Part shown: piece by piece, positions 2,227 to 57,984 of the stretch
Numbering within the stretch: position 1 is the stretch's first letter
How the letters are laid out: every line of letters begins with the position of its first letter
Assembly (NCBI GenBank): GCA_944362965.1
Contig: CALVTR010000002.1
Location: 16,145-80,144, forward strand
Reading direction: 5' to 3'
DNA from: an uncultured Clostridia bacterium
GTDB taxonomy: Bacteria > Bacillota > Clostridia > Christensenellales > UBA1242
DNA: 64,000 nt
Notes under the pieces: generated by a model
Told to the model about the DNA's origin: nothing
The model's input: the letters and a program-made list of their open reading frames with translations, nothing else
Databases searched by the model: none
Position numbers and translations under genes: made by a program

Positions 2227-2264
2227 TATTTTCTGGAGCTAACGGCGGGGATCGAACCCGCGAC
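2227..2264 (-). pseudogene. tRNA-Thr 3'-half fragment (direct repeat of tRNA nt 46-76 plus 7 nt downstream)
   Basis: 38-nt exact copy of 2419-2456 (TATTTTCTGGAGCTAACGGCGGGGATCGAACCCGCGAC). No matching 5' acceptor strand (CGTTAGC on the + strand) nearby. Confidence 0.8.
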
Positions 2265-2425
2265 AGCGTCACATACTTTCTTCGATTGCAACTTGCTCTT
2301 CGCAAGTCTTTACGAGGCGAAAGCATGTTCCTTCTCCCACAAATATTCCTATTTGCGGGGACCCTATCGACAGGTCGCGAACTTGCTTTACCTTATTTTT
2401 AATATTTTTTATTTATCATATTTTC

Positions 2426-2501
2426 TGGAGCTAACGGCGGGGATCGAACCCGCGACCTGTCGATTACGAATCAACTGCTCTACCGACTGAGCCACGTTAG
2501 C
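2426..2501 (-). tRNA. tRNA-Thr (anticodon CGU), CCA encoded
   Basis: Manual cloverleaf: acceptor GCTAACG/CGTTAGC, D arm GCTC/GAGC, anticodon arm GTTGA/TCGAC with loop TTCGTAA, T arm GCGGG-TTCGATC-CCCGC, 76 nt. Confidence 0.9.
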
Positions 2502-11740: not shown

Positions 11741-11883
11741 AATATTTCCTCCTATATTTTTATATTAGCAAATTTATAGAAAAAAACAAAATAAATTTAA
11801 GAAATGTTGATTTATTTATTAAAAATATTTAATTAAAACCACTTTCTAACTTGAATTTTTAAATATGCTCGAGCGAAGAAAAA

Positions 11884-11974
11884 GGCGGCGGAAGGAACGC
11901 AAGTTTTTGCGTTCCCATAATAAAACCGCATGGTTTTATTATGAAATTTTGTTTTCAAAATTTGTTCCGCCGCC
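11884..11974. other. closed four-way-junction structured element, copy A
   Basis: 10-bp closing stem GGCGGCGGAA/TTCCGCCGCC around three abutting perfect hairpins (9, 12 and 8 bp; loops GTTT, GCAT, TTTT). Confidence 0.7.
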
Positions 11975-12070
11975 CCTAGTTTCAATCAAGCACAAATACT
12001 TGTAAATTACCATATTTCTTAATTTTAATCAAATTAAGTTTTTATCACAAAACAACTAAAGCTAGACCTA

Positions 12071-16915: not shown

Positions 16916-17266
16916 TTATGACCTTGCTCCGCTTTCAAGCTCTGTTATCAAAAGTTTTATTGAAGCGTCAACTTCACTTTTTATAATTTCCAAATCCTTC
17001 ATAAGTTCACCGCTGTTTAACTTTTTTATGGTATATATCTTGGAGTCAAGAGTGACATCATTTATAGCACGGAAAACATTATCTTGTGCAATATCAAACT
17101 TTTGGATGGTTGCTATTCTGTTTCTAAAGCATGGCAAATCTGTCTTTTCTAGTTTATAAAGTTGTGTAAGCTCTTGCCAAAGTTGGTTTTCTTCTAGTGC
17201 CATCAATATAAGAGTGCACTCATAGTTTAGTCTTATGGCATCATCTCTTGTCACTTTAACTTTCAT
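16916..17266 (-). CDS. hypothetical protein
   Basis: 116 aa from MKVKVTRDD with AGGAG SD. The track ORF starts 45 nt earlier without an SD. Confidence 0.6.
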   Translation of the reverse strand: MKVKVTRDDAIRLNYECTLILMALEENQLWQELTQLYKLEKTDLPCFRNRIATIQKFDIAQDNVFRAINDVTLDSKIYTIKKLNSGELMKDLEIIKSEVDASIKLLITELESGARS

Positions 17267-17352
17267 GTTTTTCTCCTGTCTTATGCAAATAATATACCAT
17301 AAAAATATCATTGTGTCAATAGCAAAAAGATGCTATTAAAGATAGCACCTTT

Positions 17353-19503
17353 CTATTCTTTTTCAATACCTTTCATTGTGAGAGATATTCTCTTCTTAGG
17401 AATGTCAACAGATAGAACTTTGACGTCTACCCTGTCGCCTACTTTCAACACTTCGCTTGGATGTTTGATATATGAATCTGAAATTTGGCTTATGTGAACA
17501 AGTCCATCTTGATGAACGCCAATGTCCACGAATGCACCGAAGTCGACTACGTTACGCACAACACCTGAGAACACCATGCCTTCTTTAAGGTCTTCAAGTG
17601 TGATTACGTCACTTCTTAAAACCGGTTTTGGCATGCTTTCACGAATGTCACGACCCGGTTTAAGTAGCTCGTTTGTGATATCATTGAGAGTTGGAACGCC
17701 TATTTCACATTCTTTTGCAACCTTATCTTCACCCTTCAATTTGATAAGATTTGGTAGGTTTGAAATGTTGCCATTTTTAACATCTTCCTCGCTCATATCA
17801 AAGAGTTTTAGAAGCTTTCTTGTGGCTTCGTAGCTTTCTGGGTGAACAGCGGTGTTATCAAGTATCTCTTCGCCGCCTACAACACGCAAGAAACCTGCAC
17901 ACTGCTCATAGGCTTTTGGACCTAGTTTTGACACCTTCAAAAGTTCTTCCCTATTCTTGAAGCCCTTTGCTTTTGCTCTATAATCAACTATATTCTTAGC
18001 TATAGACATATTAAGCCCTGAAACATAGCTTAAAAGTGATGGGCTTGCTGTGTTTAAGTCAACACCTACACTGTTAACGCAGTCTTCAACAACCCCTGTT
18101 AGCACTTCGGTTAGGCGGTTTTGTGGCATATCATGTTGATATTGACCTACACCTATTGATTTAACGTCAATTTTTATAAGCTCGGCAAGCGGGTCTTGAA
18201 GGCGTCTTGCAATAGAGACTGCTGACCTGAGCGAAACGTCATAGTCTGGGAACTCTTCAGCGCCGAGTTTTGATGCTGAGTAAACTGACGCACCTGCTTC
18301 GCTTACAACCGCATAGCTAACCGGACGTGATACGTGTTTGATAAGCTCGGCAACAAAAATTTCAGCTTCCTTAGAGGCTGTGCCATTGCCGATTGAAATG
18401 ATGTCAACTCTGTCTTTTTCTATAAGTTTTTTGAGCTTTTCAATAGACTCTTCGGTCTTTGATTGTGGTGGTGTTGGATAGACAACTGCTGTGTCTAGCA
18501 CATTGCCATTTGCATCAATAACTGCAATCTTGCAGCCTGTTCTATAAGCTGGGTCAAGCCCCATGATTACATTATTTTTAAGTGGTGCTTCCATAAGAAG
18601 TGGTTTAAGGTTGACTTCAAACATCTTGATTGCCTGCTCGTCTGCCCTATCGGTTAGATTGCTTCGACATTCACGCTCTAGGGCTGGGAACAAAAGTCTA
18701 TCATAGCTGTCTTGCAAGGTCTCTTCCATAAGTTTATCGGTGTCTGAGTTGTTCTTCTTGAAATACTTATAAATAACCTTCATAGTAAGCTCTGGATTTA
18801 TCTCAATTTCAACCTTTAAGCACTTTTCTTTTTCACCACGATTGATTGCAAGTATACGGTGGCTTGGAATGGTTTTAACTTCTTGTTTGAAGCCGTTATA
18901 CATCTCGTATGTTGGGCTGTTCTCGTTCTCAACAAGTTCGCACTTTATAAATGCCTTGTTCTCAAGTAGCTCACGAAGCTCTTTGCGGAGCTCTGCATTG
19001 TCTGACACTCTTTCTGCGACAATATCTTTTGCACCTTGAATTGCATCTTCTACTGTTGGCACTTCTTCTGTGATATATTTTTCAGCTTCCTTTAAAATTT
19101 CGTATGACTTAGACTGAGCTTGCAAAATATCAGCAAGTCCTTCAAGACCTTTTGCAATAGCAACTGATGCCCTAGTTTTACGCTTTGGCTTATATGGTCT
19201 ATAAATATCTTCAACTTCTGTTAAGGTTTTAGCATTCTCGAGAGCTGTTTTTATCTCGTCAGTCCACTTGCCTTGCTCGGTTATAGCCTTCTCAACCTTT
19301 GCTTTTTCATCGTTTAAGTTTCTTAAATATTTAAGTCTATCGGCAAAAGCTCTTAGGGTTTGATCGTCGCAAGTGCCGTGCATTTCCTTTCTATAACGTG
19401 CTATGAATGGTATTGTGCAACCTTCATCAAGAAGGTTTATGATGTTTTGTGAATACTCCTGTTTTAAGCCAAATTCTTGGGCAAGAGTGGTTGTGATGTC
19501 CAT
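17353..19503 (-). CDS. tex: transcription accessory protein Tex (YqgF/HHH/S1 domains)
   Basis: 716 aa. N-terminal TIPFIARYRKE motif and C-terminal S1 domain (GMVFSGVVRNVVDFGAFVDIG..DGLVHISQ). Confidence 0.9.
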   Translation of the reverse strand: MDITTTLAQEFGLKQEYSQNIINLLDEGCTIPFIARYRKEMHGTCDDQTLRAFADRLKYLRNLNDEKAKVEKAITEQGKWTDEIKTALENAKTLTEVEDIYRPYKPKRKTRASVAIAKGLEGLADILQAQSKSYEILKEAEKYITEEVPTVEDAIQGAKDIVAERVSDNAELRKELRELLENKAFIKCELVENENSPTYEMYNGFKQEVKTIPSHRILAINRGEKEKCLKVEIEINPELTMKVIYKYFKKNNSDTDKLMEETLQDSYDRLLFPALERECRSNLTDRADEQAIKMFEVNLKPLLMEAPLKNNVIMGLDPAYRTGCKIAVIDANGNVLDTAVVYPTPPQSKTEESIEKLKKLIEKDRVDIISIGNGTASKEAEIFVAELIKHVSRPVSYAVVSEAGASVYSASKLGAEEFPDYDVSLRSAVSIARRLQDPLAELIKIDVKSIGVGQYQHDMPQNRLTEVLTGVVEDCVNSVGVDLNTASPSLLSYVSGLNMSIAKNIVDYRAKAKGFKNREELLKVSKLGPKAYEQCAGFLRVVGGEEILDNTAVHPESYEATRKLLKLFDMSEEDVKNGNISNLPNLIKLKGEDKVAKECEIGVPTLNDITNELLKPGRDIRESMPKPVLRSDVITLEDLKEGMVFSGVVRNVVDFGAFVDIGVHQDGLVHISQISDSYIKHPSEVLKVGDRVDVKVLSVDIPKKRISLTMKGIEKE

Positions 19504-22849: not shown

Positions 22850-23725
22850 TTATGATCTGAGACTTATATCTATCGTGCAATTTTCAGTGATATTTATGAT
22901 AGCATAATAGTAAACATATGTAGTGTGTGCATCAGCACTATCTATAATTTCATTATCTATATATAAAATCACTCTTCCTGTATGAATATCTATCACAGAC
23001 TCAAAGCCATAAAAGGTATTTTCAGATGACCAATCAATTTCGTTAACATAAGATTCAAAGTTAGTAGGACCATTATTATATACTATAACACAAATCTTAG
23101 TATTTATTGGAACTGAAATCGTCGTATCTATAGGATTGCTAGAACTAGCACCTGTTTCTATTATTTCAGTATTTCCTTCACCAATTATATAAGCATCAAG
23201 CATATCACCTTGCAAGGTCACTTGAATGCCGGGATCTACATATTCTATAAAGCTTAGTGCTATGTCATCTAAAGTGACACTTGTTGTGCCTGTGTAGGTT
23301 ATAGTTAAGGTTATTGTGCCGGAGATTGTCGGCGTTGTGGCTACGTCTTCTACTGGGGTCGAATTGCCTGTGATTATGCCTGAAATTTCTAGACTTGCGT
23401 TTTGCAAAACTCTATCACAGGTTGCGGTGTAATCCGTTTCTGTGGTGTTTATCATATCTATTTCTATTGCGACAACACCTGAAGTGCTTTCTATGTTGCC
23501 TAAGTTTAAATCTAAGGTTGAATTTATATATCCTGGCATAAAGTTTTCTATTGTCTCTGATTGCAAGCGTATATCTTTAACATAGAGCGTGGTGTCTTCT
23601 ATATTAAAGTTTACTACCCCTTTTAGATTTATCGTTTGGCTTGCTGCATACACTCCAACTAGCAACATAGATAGCATCAACACAAAAGCTGATATTGCTG
23701 AAAATAATTTTACTTTTAGTGACAT
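22850..23725 (-). CDS. secreted/surface protein, unknown function
   Basis: 291 aa from MSLKVKLFSAISAFVLMLSMLLVGVYA (signal peptide; AAAGGAG SD). Thr/Ile-rich beta-like sequence. Shares a TLTIT...L.DI...I.EY..P segment with the 62557-64000 protein. Confidence 0.7.
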   Translation of the reverse strand: MSLKVKLFSAISAFVLMLSMLLVGVYAASQTINLKGVVNFNIEDTTLYVKDIRLQSETIENFMPGYINSTLDLNLGNIESTSGVVAIEIDMINTTETDYTATCDRVLQNASLEISGIITGNSTPVEDVATTPTISGTITLTITYTGTTSVTLDDIALSFIEYVDPGIQVTLQGDMLDAYIIGEGNTEIIETGASSSNPIDTTISVPINTKICVIVYNNGPTNFESYVNEIDWSSENTFYGFESVIDIHTGRVILYIDNEIIDSADAHTTYVYYYAIINITENCTIDISLRS

Positions 23726-23754
23726 ATTATAAACTCCTTTTTCTTGATTTTTAC

Positions 23755-23871
23755 GAGTGGCTTTGCCGCGAGAAGGCACAAAAGGCTGACGAGCCTTTTA
23801 GAAGGCAAAGACTTTTGCCTTCTTGTGCATTTTTCCCAAAATGCACATGCCTTCTCGCGGTAAAGCCGCTC
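23755..23871. other. closed four-way-junction structured element, copy B
   Basis: 24-bp closing stem (23755-23778 / 23848-23871, two G-T pairs) around hairpins 23780-23799, 23800-23823 and 23824-23847 (8, 10 and 10 bp; loops GACG, GACT, TCCC). An extra hairpin lies at 23874-23895. Confidence 0.7.
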
Positions 23872-23906
23872 GCGATAGACGCTGACGCGTCTATCTTTAT
23901 GCTATT

Positions 23907-23934
23907 AGTATACCCCCCCCGCAAACCACGTCAA
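23907..23934 (-). promoter_or_regulatory. sigma-A-type promoter (TTGACG-16-TATACT) whose spacer contains a G8/C8 homopolymer
   Basis: -35 at 23929-23934, -10 at 23907-23912, C8 tract at 23913-23920 abutting the -10. Confidence 0.55.
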
Positions 23935-24061: not shown

Positions 24062-24093
24062 AAAAAAGCGTTAGCGGATGCTAACGTTTTTTT
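24062..24093. terminator. bidirectional intrinsic terminator
   Basis: AAGCGTTAGC-GGAT-GCTAACGTTT stem flanked by A6 and T7. Downstream of the M55 peptidase gene. Confidence 0.75.
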
Positions 24094-29905: not shown

Positions 29906-32900
29906 ATGAGAAAGATTTTTAAAATTCTGTCTTATTCACTTTTATATTTGATTATTTCAGTGGCATCAGCTTATGGTGTCATAACTATTTCAATGAATAA
30001 TTACACGAACGAGCAAAATTCAACTAGCTCTGGCGGCTCCACTGAAGAGACTGTTATAGCAGAAGAAATTTCCACAATGATAAGCAATATCACAAACTCT
30101 AGTGCTTTGGGGCTTGAACTTGAGATTGAAATAGGTGCTGATGGGCAAAACTTTGAGATTGGCGTCGACGGCGAAATCGACCTTTCTAATGGTTTTGAGA
30201 ACTTGGCAGTAAATGCTGATATAAATATTGCATTTAGTGAGAATAGCTCTTTTGATATCGGCGTTATATATAAGGATGGCAACCTATATTTTGAACTTTT
30301 GAACAATAAATTCTTTATAGCAACCGACAATTTGATGACTTCACTTAGTCAAGTGTTTGGACTTCTTGGTGTTGAGATGCCTGAGCTTGGCATTGATTTG
30401 GACTCGCTTAGCCTTGACAGCATTCTTGGTATGCTTTCTAACTTTGAAAAAGTGAATGGTGAAGACGGCTTGCTTGTGCTTCAAGTGGCTATTCCTGTTG
30501 TAAATCAAATTGACCTTATCTGCACAACCGACTATACACTAACCGGGCTTAGCCTTCCTAAGACTTCTATTGAAGGTATTGAACTTGCTGTAAACGGCAA
30601 TGTAAGTTACCCTGAGGAAGTTGTAATTGATAGTGTTGACAGTAGTGATTATATTGACCTTACTAATGTTATTGACCTTGCGTGCGGGCTTATTGACTTT
30701 ATCTCTCAAGACCAAATTGGGCTTGAATATAATGTAAGTTATAATGATTTGACGATTGCTGGCCGCATCGACGTTGATTTAAATAATATCTCAGCTAAAA
30801 TTACTCTTGCTCTTGGTGATTTAAATGCAAATATAATATATCAAAATGGCATGCTCTACCTTGAAGCTTACAATATCTATGCTAAGTTTGATATTGGGCA
30901 GATTGGAGATGTTTTGACATTGGCTCAAAAATACTTTGACGTTGAGTTGCCTAATGAGCTGATTGCTAGCATTGTGTCTGCTATTGAAAGTGGTGATTTT
31001 AGCGGAATACTTGACAGTGTTGAGCTGCCTGAAATTGACCTTTCTTCTATCGACCTTTCAATACTTGAAAGCATTGTGAAGAATGGTGACACAACTTCTA
31101 TTACAATCACTGATATTGGCAAAATTGACGTGACTTTAAGTGAAGGCAAAATAGCGTCTATTGGATTTGATGGTTTTGGCGCTATGGTTGATGTTAATGT
31201 TTCTAACTATAGCGGATTTACTCTAACTGCCCCTGCTGAAAGCTATATTGATATTGGATTGCTGCTTCCAACGCTTGATAACGTGCTTGCAATTCTTCAA
31301 AACAACACATTCTCTGGACAGATAAATATTGTCTATGGGGAATATCAATTTGACATTGATTACACTATTCACACGCGTGAAGAAAACAGCTTTATCACTC
31401 TTTCAACTAGTGTGTTTGGGCAAGATATTAAGGTAAATATATTAAATAATAAAGTTTACATTGAAATAAGTGAGACTAAGCTTATTTGTGACCTTAATAA
31501 CCTTGAAAATGTTATTGGTAAAGTGCTTGATGCATTTGGAATTGAATTTGATAGTTCTTCTATAACTAGTGGACTTAAGGACTTAATCAATAGCGAAATC
31601 AATCCACTTTTAATTACAGGTCTTGTTGAAAATGAAAATGGTGTAACTATTGTTTTACTTGATAAACTGGCAATAACTTTAACAAATGGCTCTAGCGAGC
31701 TTAAGATTGATGTAAACTATCAAGACTTGAAGGTTAGCGGCAATGTTATAGGAAGCATACAAGAACTTACAGCCCCAACCATTGATGAAAGTGAGTACTC
31801 ACCTATTGAAGATATCGTTGACAGTGTGATAAATGTATATAACTACGTTTTAGCTAAGACTTTCTATCTAAGTTTTGATGCAAGTTATCAAGATATTGCT
31901 ATAGTTGGTGCGTTAAACTATGATGAAAGCGGGCTTTCTCTTACTGCAACACTGAGCTATCAAAACTTAACTGCAAATGTTATGCTTTCTGAAAACAAAG
32001 TTTACATCACTGCAGAAAACATCAAGCTTGTGTTTGACTTAAATGACATTGATTATGTTAAATCCTTCTTAAATGACTACTTCGGTGTTGATGTTGAAGG
32101 CATGCTTGATGAAATTTTAGGCAAAGTTGGAATTAGTCTTGATAGTAGCAATGATTCTAGCAACTTAATTTCGGACATCTTAAGCGGAATTGACCTTGAG
32201 ACTATCATAAGCGGTGCAAGCTTTAATATCTCATCTGACACAATCACTCTTTCTGCTCTTGATGGACTTAATGTCAATATTGCTCTTGAAGAAAATATGA
32301 TTACAAGTATTTCTCTTAGCTACAATATTTCAAGTGAAGAACAAACTGCGATTTCAGCCAATGTTACAATTGAAAATTCAAAAAATGAATTTTCTATTGT
32401 AAATGAAAGTGAATATATTGATGTTATTGAACTTCTTGATATTGTAAAAGCTCTCATTGACTTTGCAAGTCAAGACCAAATGGCTGTAAATTATCAAGTT
32501 AACTACAATGATGTAGATGTAAATGGAAAAATTGACTTAAATGTTGCAGAGAAATCCGCAAAGATATCAATCAATATAAATGATTTAATGGCAAACATTA
32601 TCTATGAAAGCGGTTCGCTTTATCTTGAAGCTTACAACATCTATGCTAGGTTTGATATTGGGCAGATTGGAGACGTTTTGACCTTGGTTGAAAAATATTT
32701 TGATGTTACACTGCCTAATGAGTTGATTGCTAGCGTTGTATCTGCTATTGAAAGTGGCGATTTTAGTGGAATACTTGATAGCATTGAACTGCCTTCTATT
32801 GACCTTGGCTCTATTGACCTTTCAATACTTGAGAGCATTGTGAAGAATGGTGACACAACTTCTATTACAATCACTGATATTGGCAAGATTGACGTGACTT

Positions 32901-35900
32901 TAAATGAAGGCAAAATAGCGTCTATAGGTTTTGATGGTTTTGGCGCTGTGGTTGATGTTAATGTTTCTAACTATAGCGGATTTACTCTAACTGCCCCTGC
33001 TGAAAGCTATATTGATATTGGATTGCTGCTTCCAACGCTTGATAACGTGCTTGCAATTCTTCAAAACAACACATTCTCTGGACAGATAAATATTGTCTAT
33101 GGGGAATATCAATTTGACATTGATTACACTATTCACACGCGTGAAGAAAACAGCTTTATCACTCTTTCAACTAGTGTGTTTGGGCAAGATATTAAGGTAA
33201 ATATATTAAATAATAAAGTTTACATTGAAATAAGTGAGACTAAGCTTATTTGTGACCTTAATAACCTTGAAAATGTTATTGGTAAAGTGCTTGATGCATT
33301 TGGAATTGAATTTGATAGTTCTTCTATAACTAGTGGACTTAAGGACTTAATCAATAGCGAAATCAACCCACTTTTAATCACAAGCTTTGTTGAAAATGAA
33401 AATGGTTTGACTATAGTTTTACTTGATAAACTTACAATAACTCTCACAAATGGCTCTAGCGAGCTTAAGGTTGATGCAAGTTATCAAGACTTAAAGCTGA
33501 GTGCAAACGTTATTGGAAGTGAGCAAGAGCTTTCTGCTCCAGCCATTGTTGAAAGTGAATACACACCTATTGAAGATATTGTTGACAGTGTGATAAATGT
33601 TTATAACTACGTTTTAGCCAAGACTTTCTATCTAAGTTTTGATGCAAGCTATCAAGATATTGCTATAGTTGGTGCGTTAAATTATGATGAAAGTGGGCTC
33701 TCTCTTACTGCAACACTGAGCTATCAAAGCCTATCTGCAAATGTTATGCTTTATGAAAACAAAGTATATATCACAGCAGAAAATATCAAACTTGTGTTTG
33801 ACTTAAATGACCTTGAATATGTTAAGACATTCTTAAATGACTATTTCGGTGTTGATATTGAAGGCAAGCTTGATGAAATATTAGGCAAAGTTGGAATTAG
33901 TCTTGATAGTAGTGATAGTGGCAATATGATATCTGACATTTTAAGCGGACTTGACCTTGAGGCTATCATAAGTGGTGCAAGTTTCAATATCTCATCTGAT
34001 GCAATCACCCTTTCTGCTCTTGATGGACTTAACGTGAATATTTCCCTTACAGAAAACATGATTGACACAATTAGTGTTGAGTATATGCTTGTAAATGGAG
34101 AAAATAGCTCGCCTATCAGTGCAAATATTAAAGTTGAACAAATCGCAAGTATCTTTAACCCTGTTGGAGATTATACTGATATTACGACTATATTAGACTA
34201 CGTTGGACTGCTTTTAGATTATGTTAGCACAAAACAGATGCAATTTGGCATTGCGGCAAGTTATGGTGATATAAATGTTGAAGGTAAAATTCAACTTGAT
34301 TTAACTTCTCAACTTCTTATGAGTGCTAGTCTAAACTCAAATGACATCGACAACTTTGATATTTCTGCAAATATTGAAGACGGAATGCTCTACTTTGATT
34401 ATAGTGGGCTCTGCTTAAAGATTGATAACAACAACTTTAAAGAGCTTCTCGTTATTGTGCTTGAAGTTCTTGGAATTGATGCAAATAGCATACCTTTCCT
34501 TGAAGATATCGACCTTGACCTTGATTTCTCTCAAATTGAAACTGACATTGCTTCGCTTGAAATAAGCATTGACGACATAGTAAATATCTTGAAAATGGTG
34601 AAGAAAATTGACGTGACAGGAGACAGTCTTGATATTATTCTTGACGGAAAGGCAATCTATAACAATGAAAACGCAAGTGACCTTACAATCTCTCTTATTA
34701 AAGAAAATGGTGCTATTAAGTCTTTGACGCTTTCTAATATATATCTTGATGAAACGCTTGAAACAAAGATTGACGCTACCCTTACTTTTGAAACGCTAAG
34801 TGATTTTGCTTATGTTGATCAAACCAAAAATTATATTGATATTTCAGGCTCTAACGAGCTTATCAAGGCTCTTATCAATATGACAACTGATACTGACTTC
34901 CATGTTCAAGGTTCATTTGATATCTTGGGTTCGCTTGCTGGTATTGATATCTCTTGGAACGTTCCATTTGATATCAAAATCAACGTTGTGGGCAAAGGTG
35001 ACATTGAACTTTATGGCGTGGTTGGAGAAATCCCGACTATGATTGGCGTTAATAACGACGTGCCTTATGAGTTTGGTGATACTGAAAGTGGCTCTGACAG
35101 ATACCTATATATCTACTATAAGGATGGCTATATCTATCTTTATAGAAGTGAAAAAGTTGATATCATGTTTGGCGCTAGCTATAGAACTTATGAAAAGAGC
35201 ACAAAAATTTCAATAGACACCTTCCTTGCTGACCCTATGTATTATATTCAATACTGCTTTGGTTTTACTGACACTATTATGAATGCAATTATTGAGTCTA
35301 TGAACAATCCACGCACGGAGCCGATGGACTTTGGCAACATTATTAAGTCTTTCACTGTTCAAGATAATAAGAACTTCACGATTGACCTTAATATGCATGA
35401 GCTTACAAACAACCCTGACCTTGACAGTCTTATTGTTTCACTTGGAATTGAACAGACTGCTGAGGGAAAGAACTATGTTGGCAAACTGCAACTTAGTCTT
35501 TACATGCCACTTGCTGATATATTCACACTTACCCTATCAACGAGCGATGCTCAAATTGTTGACTATGGAACAGAAGTTGATATGAGCCCACTTTATGACT
35601 TTATTAATAACTATCAATACGCAAGCGAGACAGAGTGGGAAGCAAGCAATGGCAACTGGCAGATGTCTGGGGAAATACTCTATCAAATAAATTTTGAAAC
35701 AAATTGCGACGAGACGCTTGAGTCACAAAGTTATCATTATAAAGATAGTTTAGCTCTGCCAACACTTTCTGACTATGTTGTTGACGATGGGCTTACACAT
35801 AAGAGTTATCACTTTGCGGGTTGGTTTGAAGATGAAACTTTCTTGACACAATTTACAAGTGATACAATGCCTAGAAAAGATATGACCTTATATGCTAAGT

Positions 35901-46795: not shown

Positions 46796-46865
46796 TTATT
46801 ATAAAATAGTATTTTATTTTTAGATTTTACTTAAAAATTTTGAGTTTAGGTTTGATAGTTTAAGT

Positions 46866-47390
46866 TTAGTCTTCGTCGTCATCGTCGTAGTCATAATCGT
46901 CGTCATCATCGTCATCGCTGTCGTCAATATCGTCACTATCTTCGTCGTCATCGTCATCTTCGTCATCGTCTTCGTCGAAGTCTTCATCATCAAAGCTTAT
47001 ATCGTCTTCGTCGTCAGCAAAGTCAATATCAGGCGTGATATCGTCATCATCAAGCAAGCTTGATTTTGTGATGTCATTGACAGATGCCATGTCACCTGTT
47101 TCATCATCCATAGTCATAACATCGTCATTATCGTCGCGGACAATATAATCTTCCCAATCAGAGTTGAGTTCGCCGTCTTCATTTTGATGCTCCTTAAGGC
47201 AGCTTGCACACATGATTTCGTCTGGTTGAATATAGTTTGTTTTGCAAATTGGGCAAAGCTCTAGGTCTATATCGTCAACATAATCCTTCTTTGCTTCCAT
47301 TTCTGCTTTGCAAACAGAACAATATTTATCCTTTTTTTGTATATAGTTTAGTTCACATCTAGGACATCTAATATAAACTGGTTTTTTCAT
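46866..47390 (-). CDS. double zinc-ribbon protein with about 100-aa poly-Asp/Glu tail
   Basis: CPRCELNYIQ...CSVC and CPICKTNYIQ...CASC. The C-terminal third is almost entirely D/E. AAGGAGAG SD. Confidence 0.75.
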   Translation of the reverse strand: MKKPVYIRCPRCELNYIQKKDKYCSVCKAEMEAKKDYVDDIDLELCPICKTNYIQPDEIMCASCLKEHQNEDGELNSDWEDYIVRDDNDDVMTMDDETGDMASVNDITKSSLLDDDDITPDIDFADDEDDISFDDEDFDEDDDEDDDDDEDSDDIDDSDDDDDDDYDYDDDDED

Positions 47391-52807: not shown

Positions 52808-52899
52808 GCTGCTCGGAAATGCCACTTTGAAAAAGTGGCAAAAGTTGCCTGAAGGGCAACTTTTTAAAATTTTAAATTAAAATTTTATTTCCGAGCAGC
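52808..52899. other. closed four-way-junction structured element, copy C
   Basis: 13-bp closing stem GCTGCTCGGAAAT/ATTTCCGAGCAGC around hairpins 52821-52839, 52840-52864 and 52866-52886 (8, 10 and 8-9 bp). Confidence 0.7.
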
Positions 52900-57856: not shown

Positions 57857-57941
57857 GCTCGGAAACGCATGCCATAGGCTTGCAAAAAGAAAGTTTCTAC
57901 TTTCTTTTTAAAAAATTGATTTATCAATTTTTGTTTCCGAG
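57857..57941. other. closed four-way-junction structured element, copy D
   Basis: 10-bp closing stem GCTCGGAAAC/GTTTCCGAGC around hairpins 57867-57883, 57884-57909 and 57910-57931 (7 bp with one T-T, 11 bp, 9 bp), with zero junction nucleotides. Confidence 0.7.
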
Positions 57942-57984
57942 CAATTTATAAAAAACAATATTTTTTAGCGACTATTTAAATTTA

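Follow-up and report, generated by a model that had tools for sequence, protein, structure and literature searches.

Organization of the locus around element B

This study concerns element B, a branched palindromic structure within a 64,000-nucleotide stretch (the window) of contig CALVTR010000002.1 from an uncultured Clostridia bacterium. Along the minus strand, the locus consists of an M55 peptidase gene, a terminator, an AT-rich stretch, a promoter, a 9-bp hairpin, the cloverleaf element B, the segment UAAAAAUCAAGAAAAAGGAG with the ribosome binding site (RBS), and the ATG of a gene for a 291-aa protein. Because the M55 peptidase gene has a terminator of its own, element B was assigned to the next transcription unit, and the sequence context places it in the predicted 5′ untranslated region (UTR) of the surface-protein gene at 22850-23725. 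A preliminary description of this DNA had likewise put the element in the leader of a secreted-protein gene that is read through it from a minus-strand promoter at 23907-23934. Both points agree with the present analysis: TTGACG-16-TATACT was found there, and B lies between this promoter and the RBS of a gene whose product begins with a signal-peptide-like sequence. The features of the locus are as follows; other contigs and loci used in the comparisons carry L numbers, and the hairpin slots are counted in the gene orientation.

24069..24086, minus strand: intrinsic terminator, of ordinary type, of the upstream M55 peptidase gene (terminator scan)
23907..23934, minus strand: sigma-70-type promoter TTGACG-N16-TATACT of gene 22850-23725, kept in L033, L037, L038, L039 and L040
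23913..23920, minus strand: homopolymer in the promoter spacer, C8 on the plus strand and G8 on the coding strand, with a length that differs between samples
23874..23895, minus strand: 5′-proximal leader hairpin, 9 bp, loop TGAC, kept in orthologs, unlike the cloverleaf
23754..23872, minus strand (polarity in the mRNA sense): cloverleaf element B, a four-way junction with 3 perfect hairpins, 53 bp in 119 nt, 0.89 of the bases paired
23848..23871, no strand: closing-stem arm of B, 3′ side on the plus strand and 5′ arm in the mRNA, its outer part GCGAGCGGCTT..CCGC kept in orthologous leaders
23824..23847, no strand: hairpin TGTGCATTTT-TCCC-AAAATGCACA of B, 10 bp, mRNA slot 1, the AT-rich slot
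23800..23823, no strand: hairpin AGAAGGCAAA-GACT-TTTGCCTTCT of B, 10 bp, slot 2, its arms repeating the inner octamer of the closing stem
23780..23799, no strand: hairpin AAAAGGCT-GACG-AGCCTTTT of B, 8 bp, mRNA slot 3
23755..23778, no strand: closing-stem arm of B, 5′ side on the plus strand and 3′ arm in the mRNA (sequence and folding)
23734..23739, minus strand: Shine-Dalgarno AAGGAG, unpaired in every predicted fold
22850..23725, minus strand: downstream gene for the 291-aa protein, with a signal-peptide-like N-terminus and homologs that have variable C-terminal domains

The 9-bp leader hairpin begins ~12 nt past the -10 box. No Pfam or NCBIfam family was assigned to the 291-aa product, and exact look-ups of this protein and of its paralog P0021 gave no match.

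Folding of element B

The region 23745-23905 was folded on both strands and compared with 200 dinucleotide shuffles. On the plus strand the minimum free energy was -98.4 kcal/mol (z = -16.2), and 0 of the 200 shuffles were as stable; on the minus strand it was -94.0 kcal/mol (z = -13.0). In a sliding RNAfold scan, element B was the most stable 160-nt fold of the entire window. The four-way junction, the sizes of the stem and hairpins, the loops and the fourth hairpin that had been described earlier were all reproduced exactly by sequence and folding. The closing stem has 24 bp (23755-23778 / 23848-23871) and extends to 25 bp on the plus strand through 23754/23872. Two of its positions are G-T on the plus strand and A-C on the minus strand. 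The only unpaired base in the junction is the C at 23779. The octamer AGAAGGCA begins at 23771 and again at 23800, and its complement lies at 23816-23823 and at 23848-23855, so that the duplication noted in the preliminary description is present in the sequence. What comes after the closing stem on the coding strand is UAAAAAUCAAG, with no U-tract, and a plain intrinsic terminator was rejected as an identity for B on this ground. A tRNA-like cloverleaf was rejected as well, as ARAGORN and Rfam found only the tRNA-Thr at 2426-2501 and the loops (3-5 nt, against 7 nt in a tRNA) and stems (7-12 bp) do not have the characteristic tRNA dimensions; so was a retron non-coding RNA, there being no reverse transcriptase gene among the annotated neighbours.

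A variable homopolymer in the promoter

The length of the poly-G tract varied across contigs. The alleles G7, G8, G9 and CG6 were found while the remainder of the 480-nt spacer was identical, and another three contigs stop precisely where the -35 box of this promoter lies. These changes shift the -35/-10 spacer between 15 and 17 nt. The tract is the sole G/C run of at least 6 in the 64 kb, and it is kept upstream of orthologs with 59-68% protein identity. Phase-variable promoters with a homopolymer in the spacer are known, for example at porA and opc of Neisseria and hif of Haemophilus, and the B promoter resembles them in having a poly-G tract between -35 and -10 whose length varies between and within samples. 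It differs from them in its uncultured Clostridia host, in serving an uncharacterised surface-protein family, and in that its ON/OFF behaviour is predicted from sequence. The known switches in Clostridia are mostly invertible promoters. Given the length polymorphism that was observed, this surface-protein family of gut-type Clostridia is probably subject to homopolymer-driven promoter phase variation, by which its expression would be altered. An invertible promoter segment was considered and rejected, as no inverted alleles occurred in 7-10 assemblies.

The contigs L015, L017, L018, L029 and L034-L036 stop within a cloverleaf hairpin or precisely at the poly-G tract. As many short-read contigs stop at such places, these features break up assemblies and are probably under-represented in metagenome-assembled genomes.

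Conserved and exchanged parts of the orthologous leaders

The leaders of the orthologous loci L033, L034-L036, L037, L038, L039 and L040 were compared with that of the window. The parts that are kept are the poly-G promoter, the 5′-proximal hairpin, the outer part of the 5′ arm of the stem, and a ...CTCG(T/C)AAAAATCAAG-RBS segment. In the hairpin, one compensatory change from G-C to A-T separates the window and L040 from L033, L038 and L039. The interior of the leader is entirely different among the orthologs. The window contains cloverleaf B; L038 and L040 contain another cloverleaf, AGAGCGAATAT[GTAAATTTTTGC...][GAAAGGC...][ACAAACTCC...]ATATTCGCTCT; L033 and L039 contain 1-3 copies of another repeat module, ...GTCGGACAATCG(C/T)CAA(G/A)CATTTGG..., which in the L033 leader folds weakly (z = -2.9); and L037 has practically no leader. 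Loci that encode identical proteins can even differ in their leaders, as seen for L038 versus L039 and for L033 versus L034-L036. Judged from these alignments, the leader position of B is a hotspot for the swapping of small structured modules. The preliminary description had staked its proposal on pairing that would be conserved in orthologous leaders, and for the junction no such conservation was found, another cloverleaf, other modules or nothing at all standing in its place.

In the mRNA, the 3′ arm of the B stem matches the reverse complement of the other arm almost perfectly and is unlike the equivalent arm in the relatives. When the 5′ arm of the relatives, GGCTTCGCCGC, is set against the B arm GGCTTTACCGC with GCGGCAAAGCC, one completed and one half-completed compensatory change can be seen, and the half-completed one is enough to account for an A-C mismatch in B.

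A second family of short modules was also observed, with the core ...GTCGGACA(A/G)TCG(T/C)CAAACATTTGG(T)TTGC... in both orientations. Its sites are L033 4880-4965, L039 ~180-340, L040 2050-2215 and 1440-1500, and L037 4540-4660. These modules occur in 1-3 copies in the leaders or upstream regions of orthologs of the B gene, where they are mixed with cloverleaves in a mosaic of the bacterial interspersed mosaic element (BIME) style.

A family of elements with a closing stem and three hairpins

The label "copy B" in the preliminary description implied further copies, and the next most stable folds of the window do have the same architecture. In the sliding RNAfold scan, the three most stable folds (A, B and C) all have a closing stem and three hairpins with hardly any junction nucleotides. 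A fourth member, D, was added by a relaxed scan against three dinucleotide shuffles of the window; the shuffles reached a paired fraction of at most 0.81, and the elements have 0.82-0.90. The other members in the window are as follows.

11884..11974, minus strand: member A, closing stem of 10 bp and hairpins of 8, 12 and 9 bp, between clpC and hpf
52808..52899, minus strand: member C, closing stem of 12-13 bp and three hairpins, flanked by greA and a functionally unassigned 307-aa gene
57857..57942, minus strand: member D, closing stem of 10 bp with one hairpin imperfect, between convergent gene ends

The closing stem of A is followed by TTTTTCTT on the coding strand, and that of D by UUUUUU on the minus strand. 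Member C is located downstream of a promoter, TTGCAA-17-TATAAT. The closing stems of C and D are related in sequence (GCTGCTCGGAAAT and GCTCGGAAAC), while their hairpins differ. Members A, B and C were each recovered without change from 7-10 independent metagenome assemblies, which rules out an origin as assembly artefacts.

For the census, a multiloop parser was run on RNAfold predictions of local windows, and multiloops were kept when all of their branches were unbranched stem-loops. Under strict criteria, the window and four related loci gave 9 distinct elements, and 9/9 had exactly three hairpins; 701 kb of unrelated metagenome loci gave one match, also with three hairpins. Under relaxed criteria, in which bulges were allowed and a paired fraction of at least 0.82 was required, 196 kb of the clade contained 11 three-branch structures and 1 with two branches, and the 701-kb control contained 2 three-branch structures (in L050 and L053) and 1 with two branches. 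Taken over clade and controls, 13/15 highly paired multiloops have exactly three branches. The control consists of 68 distant loci from a metagenome scan with a trxB-like protein, a scan that also gave one same-species contig. With the M55 peptidase as query, species-representative genomes yielded two irrelevant archaeal loci only.

Most elements measure ~79-93 nt with ~40 bp (full range 79-129 nt), and their closing stems range from 7 to 32 bp; the greater length of B and L040b comes solely from their longer closing stems. When the hairpins are ordered in the direction of the genes, the three slots differ in composition. Length and AT content are highest in slot 1 (mean GC 0.19), with ATTTT/AAAAT in 8/10; the slot 2 hairpin is intermediate, with AAAG in 5/10; and slot 3 combines the shortest hairpins with the highest GC content (mean GC 0.51). 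The GC content of hairpin 1 is below that of hairpin 3 in 9/10 independent elements oriented with their flanking genes (p = 0.011). This slot-specific composition, together with the polarity, argues that the elements are diverged members of one oriented family and not chance palindromes. The hairpin loops show no preference for GNRA, UUCG or any other motif. L040a and L040b have hairpins in common, in inverted order.

The minus strand of the window is also the leading strand, as indicated by GC and AT skews that are negative on the plus strand, and the orientation of the elements relative to transcription is for this reason inseparable from their orientation relative to replication. The flanking genes in the window include McsB-ClpC-Hpf, the GPR spore protease, YtfJ, GreA and RNase J, and on the sequence the host lineage is identified as uncultured spore-forming Clostridia.

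The two structures in the control loci, at L050 1666-1756 and L053 6922-7026, have the same three-hairpin layout and the same polarity from AT-rich to GC-rich, in loci whose trxB-like proteins have 42-44% identity. Since these cloverleaves lie in otherwise unrelated contigs, the class is not confined to the lineage of the window. The only highly paired two-branch multiloop in the clade set, at L038 4377-4445, is located ~100 nt before a 16S rRNA gene begins, and it might belong to an rRNA leader and not to the family.

Gain, loss and amplification of the elements

Filled and empty sites can be compared between close relatives in three places, namely L114 versus L112 and L113, the clpC-hpf spacer, and the site of B itself. 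The clpC-hpf spacer has 330 nt in the window, where it contains element A (11741-12070), and 57-82 nt with no structured element in three relatives (L110, L112 and L116) whose Hpf is 83-90% identical. In L002 and L004, which are from the same species as the window, a 10-nt indel and several substitutions reshape the promoter-like region just upstream of A.

L114 contains a subfamily with conserved sequence, present in 4 copies at 2 loci. The unit has 135 nt and consists of an 83-nt cloverleaf, ACTATGTGATG...CATCACATAGT, and a ~53-nt tail ending in ...ATAATATAAA. It forms a 2.8-copy tandem array (190-612) right after AAAATAAA, between a trxB-like gene and degV, and another copy is found 17 kb away at 17565-17712, inside an open reading frame (ORF) remnant. 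L112 and L113 share the Hpf protein of L114, and in both of them the corresponding unit sites are empty. The unit is flanked on both sides by ...ATAAA, and its end is the same pentanucleotide as the target. The copies differ from each other by compensatory changes in the stems.

Alignable homologous stems (the 5′ hairpin, the L040a and L040b hairpins, the L114 copies and the closing stem of B) contained five fully compensated pair changes versus two single changes. This excess of compensated changes indicates selection on pairing or templated re-copying of one arm. The family shares with MITEs, or miniature inverted-repeat transposable elements, the inverted-repeat ends, a length below ~300 bp, a non-coding sequence and sites that are filled or empty among close relatives. 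No match to B, C or the L114 unit was found in plasmids or phages, and none to the middle hairpin of B in viral contigs.

Switch and antisense functions of element B

The preliminary description proposed that the repeated octamer allows two mutually exclusive folds, as in attenuators and riboswitches. This proposal did not survive folding: when the octamer pairings were forced, the resulting structures cost 19-22 kcal/mol on either strand, and the ensemble probability of these pairs is at most 1e-12. In co-transcriptional prefixes of the mRNA, each hairpin forms locally once it has been transcribed and the closing stem forms last; the alternative octamer pairings were never populated, and the Shine-Dalgarno sequence was unpaired throughout. 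The likeness to attenuators and riboswitches fails for further reasons. The RBS is always free and is never sequestered, the coding strand has no terminator, and no terminator-like site was found on the minus strand within B. The junction has essentially zero unpaired nucleotides for a binding pocket and is unconserved in the orthologs. Rfam scans of A, B and C returned no family, and permissive thresholds gave noise, such as microRNA-precursor models on the long palindrome. In the other family members no hairpin arm is repeated in the closing stem. The location of B in a 5′ UTR and the presence of the octamer and of its complement in two copies each speak for such a leader, but a riboswitch or attenuator that toggles between two folds is highly improbable; it is more likely that the octamer repeat reflects the origin of this copy than that it serves a switch. 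The folding models indicate that B is not a ligand- or signal-responsive switch.

A regulatory antisense RNA, transcribed from the plus strand over B and acting on gene 22850-23725, is only slightly less improbable. The preliminary description had leaned toward a plus-strand transcript because of the two G-T positions, which would be G-U pairs on that strand and A-C on the other. The two G-T positions are real and the plus strand does fold slightly better, yet the argument does not generalise across the family, in which wobble pairs are rare and fall on either strand; those in B and C favour the antisense strand, while those in L037a, L037b and L040b favour the gene-sense strand. One of the B mismatches, moreover, reads as an incomplete compensatory change. 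A promoter-like TTAACA-17-TATATT is present at 23577-23605 on the plus strand, but promoter-like matches occur at chance frequency (5 found versus 4.5 expected). A terminator-like hairpin with a T-rich tail is also available on the plus strand at 23874-23895, but this hairpin is the one conserved as the 5′ hairpin of the sense mRNA.

Comparison with known repeats and structured DNA

Literature searches found no description of the architecture of a stem with three hairpins. The family is previously undescribed, and the kind to which it belongs, the small structured intergenic repeat, is already known. By comparison with descriptions in reviews, the closest described analogue would be bcr1-bcr3 (Group A BCR) of the B. 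cereus group. The bcr1 repeat has ~155 bp, is MITE-like with 5-bp TTTAT direct repeats, and has a cruciform-like fold with compensatory changes; its distribution varies between close strains, and transcripts often contain it, in UTRs or operon spacers (PMC3184786, PMC6542083, PMC6199540, PMC3446304). The present family resembles bcr1-bcr3 in its occurrence in Firmicutes, its intergenic location at a length of 100-160 nt, its patchy distribution between close strains, a predicted branched fold that is kept by compensation, and its sites in UTRs and spacers. In addition, TTTAT of bcr1 is the reverse complement of ATAAA, the insertion motif and end of the L114 unit. In contrast to bcr1, which has two independent stem-loops, the family has three hairpins and much more perfect stems, copies in the same genome are mostly unrelated in sequence, and the host is an uncultured Clostridia and not a member of the B. 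cereus group. A plasmid collection contained no similarity to the elements, though B. cereus plasmids reportedly carry bcr copies (PMC6542083); the bcr consensus was compared by description.

BOX, RUP and SPRITE are also MITE-like, and SPRITE is terminator-like and enriched between convergent genes (PMC3184786), a position that is occupied by D and L037b in the present family. Like BOX (boxA-boxB(n)-boxC) and RUP/SPRITE of S. pneumoniae, which can alter the expression of neighbouring genes, the family is modular and intergenic, with predicted transcription and predicted stable multi-helix folds. BOX, compared here by description, has a conserved sequence and a variable number of boxB modules, whereas the family has a fixed number of three hairpins and an unconserved sequence.

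Repetitive extragenic palindromes (REPs) are single imperfect palindromes of 20-40 nt with GTAG/CGTC heads, in hundreds of similar copies (PMC3733652). REPs and BIMEs form palindromic extragenic mosaics that are transcribed in operons and implicated in mRNA stabilisation and termination, and their structure matters to an HUH-type enzyme, the REP-associated tyrosine transposase (RAYT). No GTAG/CGTC-type head or RAYT gene turned up in the family, although no test was aimed at these.

The integron attC site is the only well-studied precedent in mobile DNA for "same shape, different sequence", as it is the folded single-stranded DNA (ssDNA) and not the sequence that is recognised. The attC sites are imperfect hairpins with extrahelical bases and R and L boxes, located at the 3′ ends of cassette ORFs near intI. 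An attC identity was rejected for the family on account of its perfect stems, its three inner hairpins and its housekeeping-gene neighbours.

Favoured explanation and alternatives

The explanation to which we give a probability of about 0.6 is that a contingency gene has B as a passenger module in its leader, B being a copy of a structured, turnover-prone repeat family. The family would consist of lineage-specific, oriented, small intergenic repeats that are defined by structure and are spread or renewed in a MITE-like manner. Its members would be gained, lost and exchanged, with at least one subfamily having transposed and been amplified in tandem, and the hairpins would diverge fast and yet stay paired, either by selection or by fold-back templating. 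At this locus, B may have landed in a pre-existing stem of the 5′ UTR or replaced its interior, and the poly-G promoter with the variable spacer would transcribe through it. On the mRNA, B would then be an inert and very stable block that leaves the RBS free and is otherwise close to neutral. It is known that 5′ stem-loops in Bacillus mRNAs protect against decay that depends on the 5′ end; B and the conserved 5′-proximal hairpin might at most shield or insulate the transcript against RNases and such decay. Confidence in any specific effect of B on expression is lower than confidence in its identity. The copies with U-tracts, A after clpC and D after a 182-aa gene, look like branched terminators because the U-tracts follow on the coding strand of the upstream gene, and from their sequence they probably terminate transcription.

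Several points weigh against this explanation. No second copy of the sequence of B, or of A or C, was present in the sequences searched, so that the mobility of B is deduced from the family and from turnover at its site. Members A, B and C have no mutual similarity that BLAST can detect, which is unusual for MITEs, and no transposase or target-site duplication was identified for the copies in the window, with no genome-wide transposase search made. Another possible source of the strict hairpin number, the perfect pairing and the uniform polarity is selection for a role at the RNA or DNA level. The polarity relative to the genes is, in addition, confounded with the direction of replication, and the dataset is small, with ~12 independent elements.

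Of the alternatives, an RNA module that is selected by the host and is not mobile is possible but rather unlikely. It would act as a device for transcript boundaries or stability, a compact four-way junction that stops 5′-3′ (RNase J) and 3′-5′ exonucleases, or as an insulator of adjacent cistrons, or as a terminator where a U-tract follows, and selection would maintain the three-hairpin shape at the sites where it is of use. The orientation of the elements agrees with that of the flanking genes; their sites resemble punctuation (after clpC, greA, ybaB and trxB, between convergent genes, and in 5′ UTRs); T-rich tails follow the closing stem in A, D and L050; compensatory change preserves the stems; and the elements are invariant within the species while their flanks carry single-nucleotide polymorphisms (SNPs). 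Against such a module, close relatives have the same spacers without the elements, the L114 copies are tandemly amplified and one of them interrupts an ORF remnant, the loops have no GNRA, UUCG or other conserved motif, and a U-tract is missing from the coding strand of B and C. That no SNPs occur in C falls short of significance, too (0 seen versus 1.8 expected, chance ~0.12). Less likely still is an element that acts at the DNA level, in which a branched cruciform or ssDNA fold would offer a structure-specific site to a recombinase, to a template-switching polymerase or to a transposase that recognises hairpins and would drive module swapping, with an orientation tied to replication and not to transcription. 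Both strands fold almost equally stably, all four copies in the window share one orientation on the leading strand, modules have been exchanged between contigs that encode identical proteins, the 3′ arm of B in the mRNA looks re-templated from the 5′ arm when compared with the relatives, and the identity of the L114 unit end with the target pentanucleotide favours tandem insertion. Opposed to this, no recombinase or transposase was identified (again with no genome-wide transposase search made), and no inverted or alternative orientations of A, B or C were seen in 7-10 independent assemblies each; the non-palindromic loops of 3-5 nt are needed by any single-stranded fold and so do not discriminate between DNA and RNA.

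A further idea, which we put forward tentatively as improbable, is that the shape of a closing stem with exactly three hairpins is itself the heritable and recognised feature, and that the elements are mobile or self-renewing units specified by structure and free of sequence. An enzyme might read the four-way junction in ssDNA or RNA, as IntI does on attC, or fold-back and template-switch synthesis might re-perfect the palindromes. If true, this would explain how elements in one genome can share architecture, size, polarity and perfect pairing with almost no common sequence, and hosts would have co-opted copies as terminators and as modules in the leaders of contingency genes.

Other repeats in the window

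The tRNA-Thr(CGT) region at 2227-2501 (minus strand) contains an exact 38-nt copy of the 3′ half of the tRNA and its trailer ~150 nt later, and the sequence between the tRNA and the partial copy had no Rfam match. Possible origins of this partial copy are a small integrative element that left an att-site scar and a repeat linked to the tRNA. In L112-L115, at ~17000-17400, two or three tandem tRNA-Thr units of ~190 nt were observed. Direct repeats of 196-300 nt with 77-86% identity and a spacing of ~1762 nt are present at 30817-34102, where the pattern suggests tandem paralogous genes. A degenerate periodic repeat of 9-15 nt, rich in GTC/ATC, is located at 46858-47048 and probably encodes, on the minus strand, a low-complexity stretch of acidic residues (rich in Asp/Glu).

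Implications

Small structured repeats, among them REP, BOX, bcr and Correia elements, influence where transcripts end, how stable mRNAs are and how genes are expressed, and they are normally found by sequence similarity. The present family has shape, size and polarity in common and little sequence, and it would escape similarity searches, which points to a blind spot in the annotation of repeats in uncultured Firmicutes. Element B is also a caution that a very stable structure in a leader need not be a riboswitch. For the study of palindromes, the family offers a compact natural system in which to follow how they stay perfect while they diverge.

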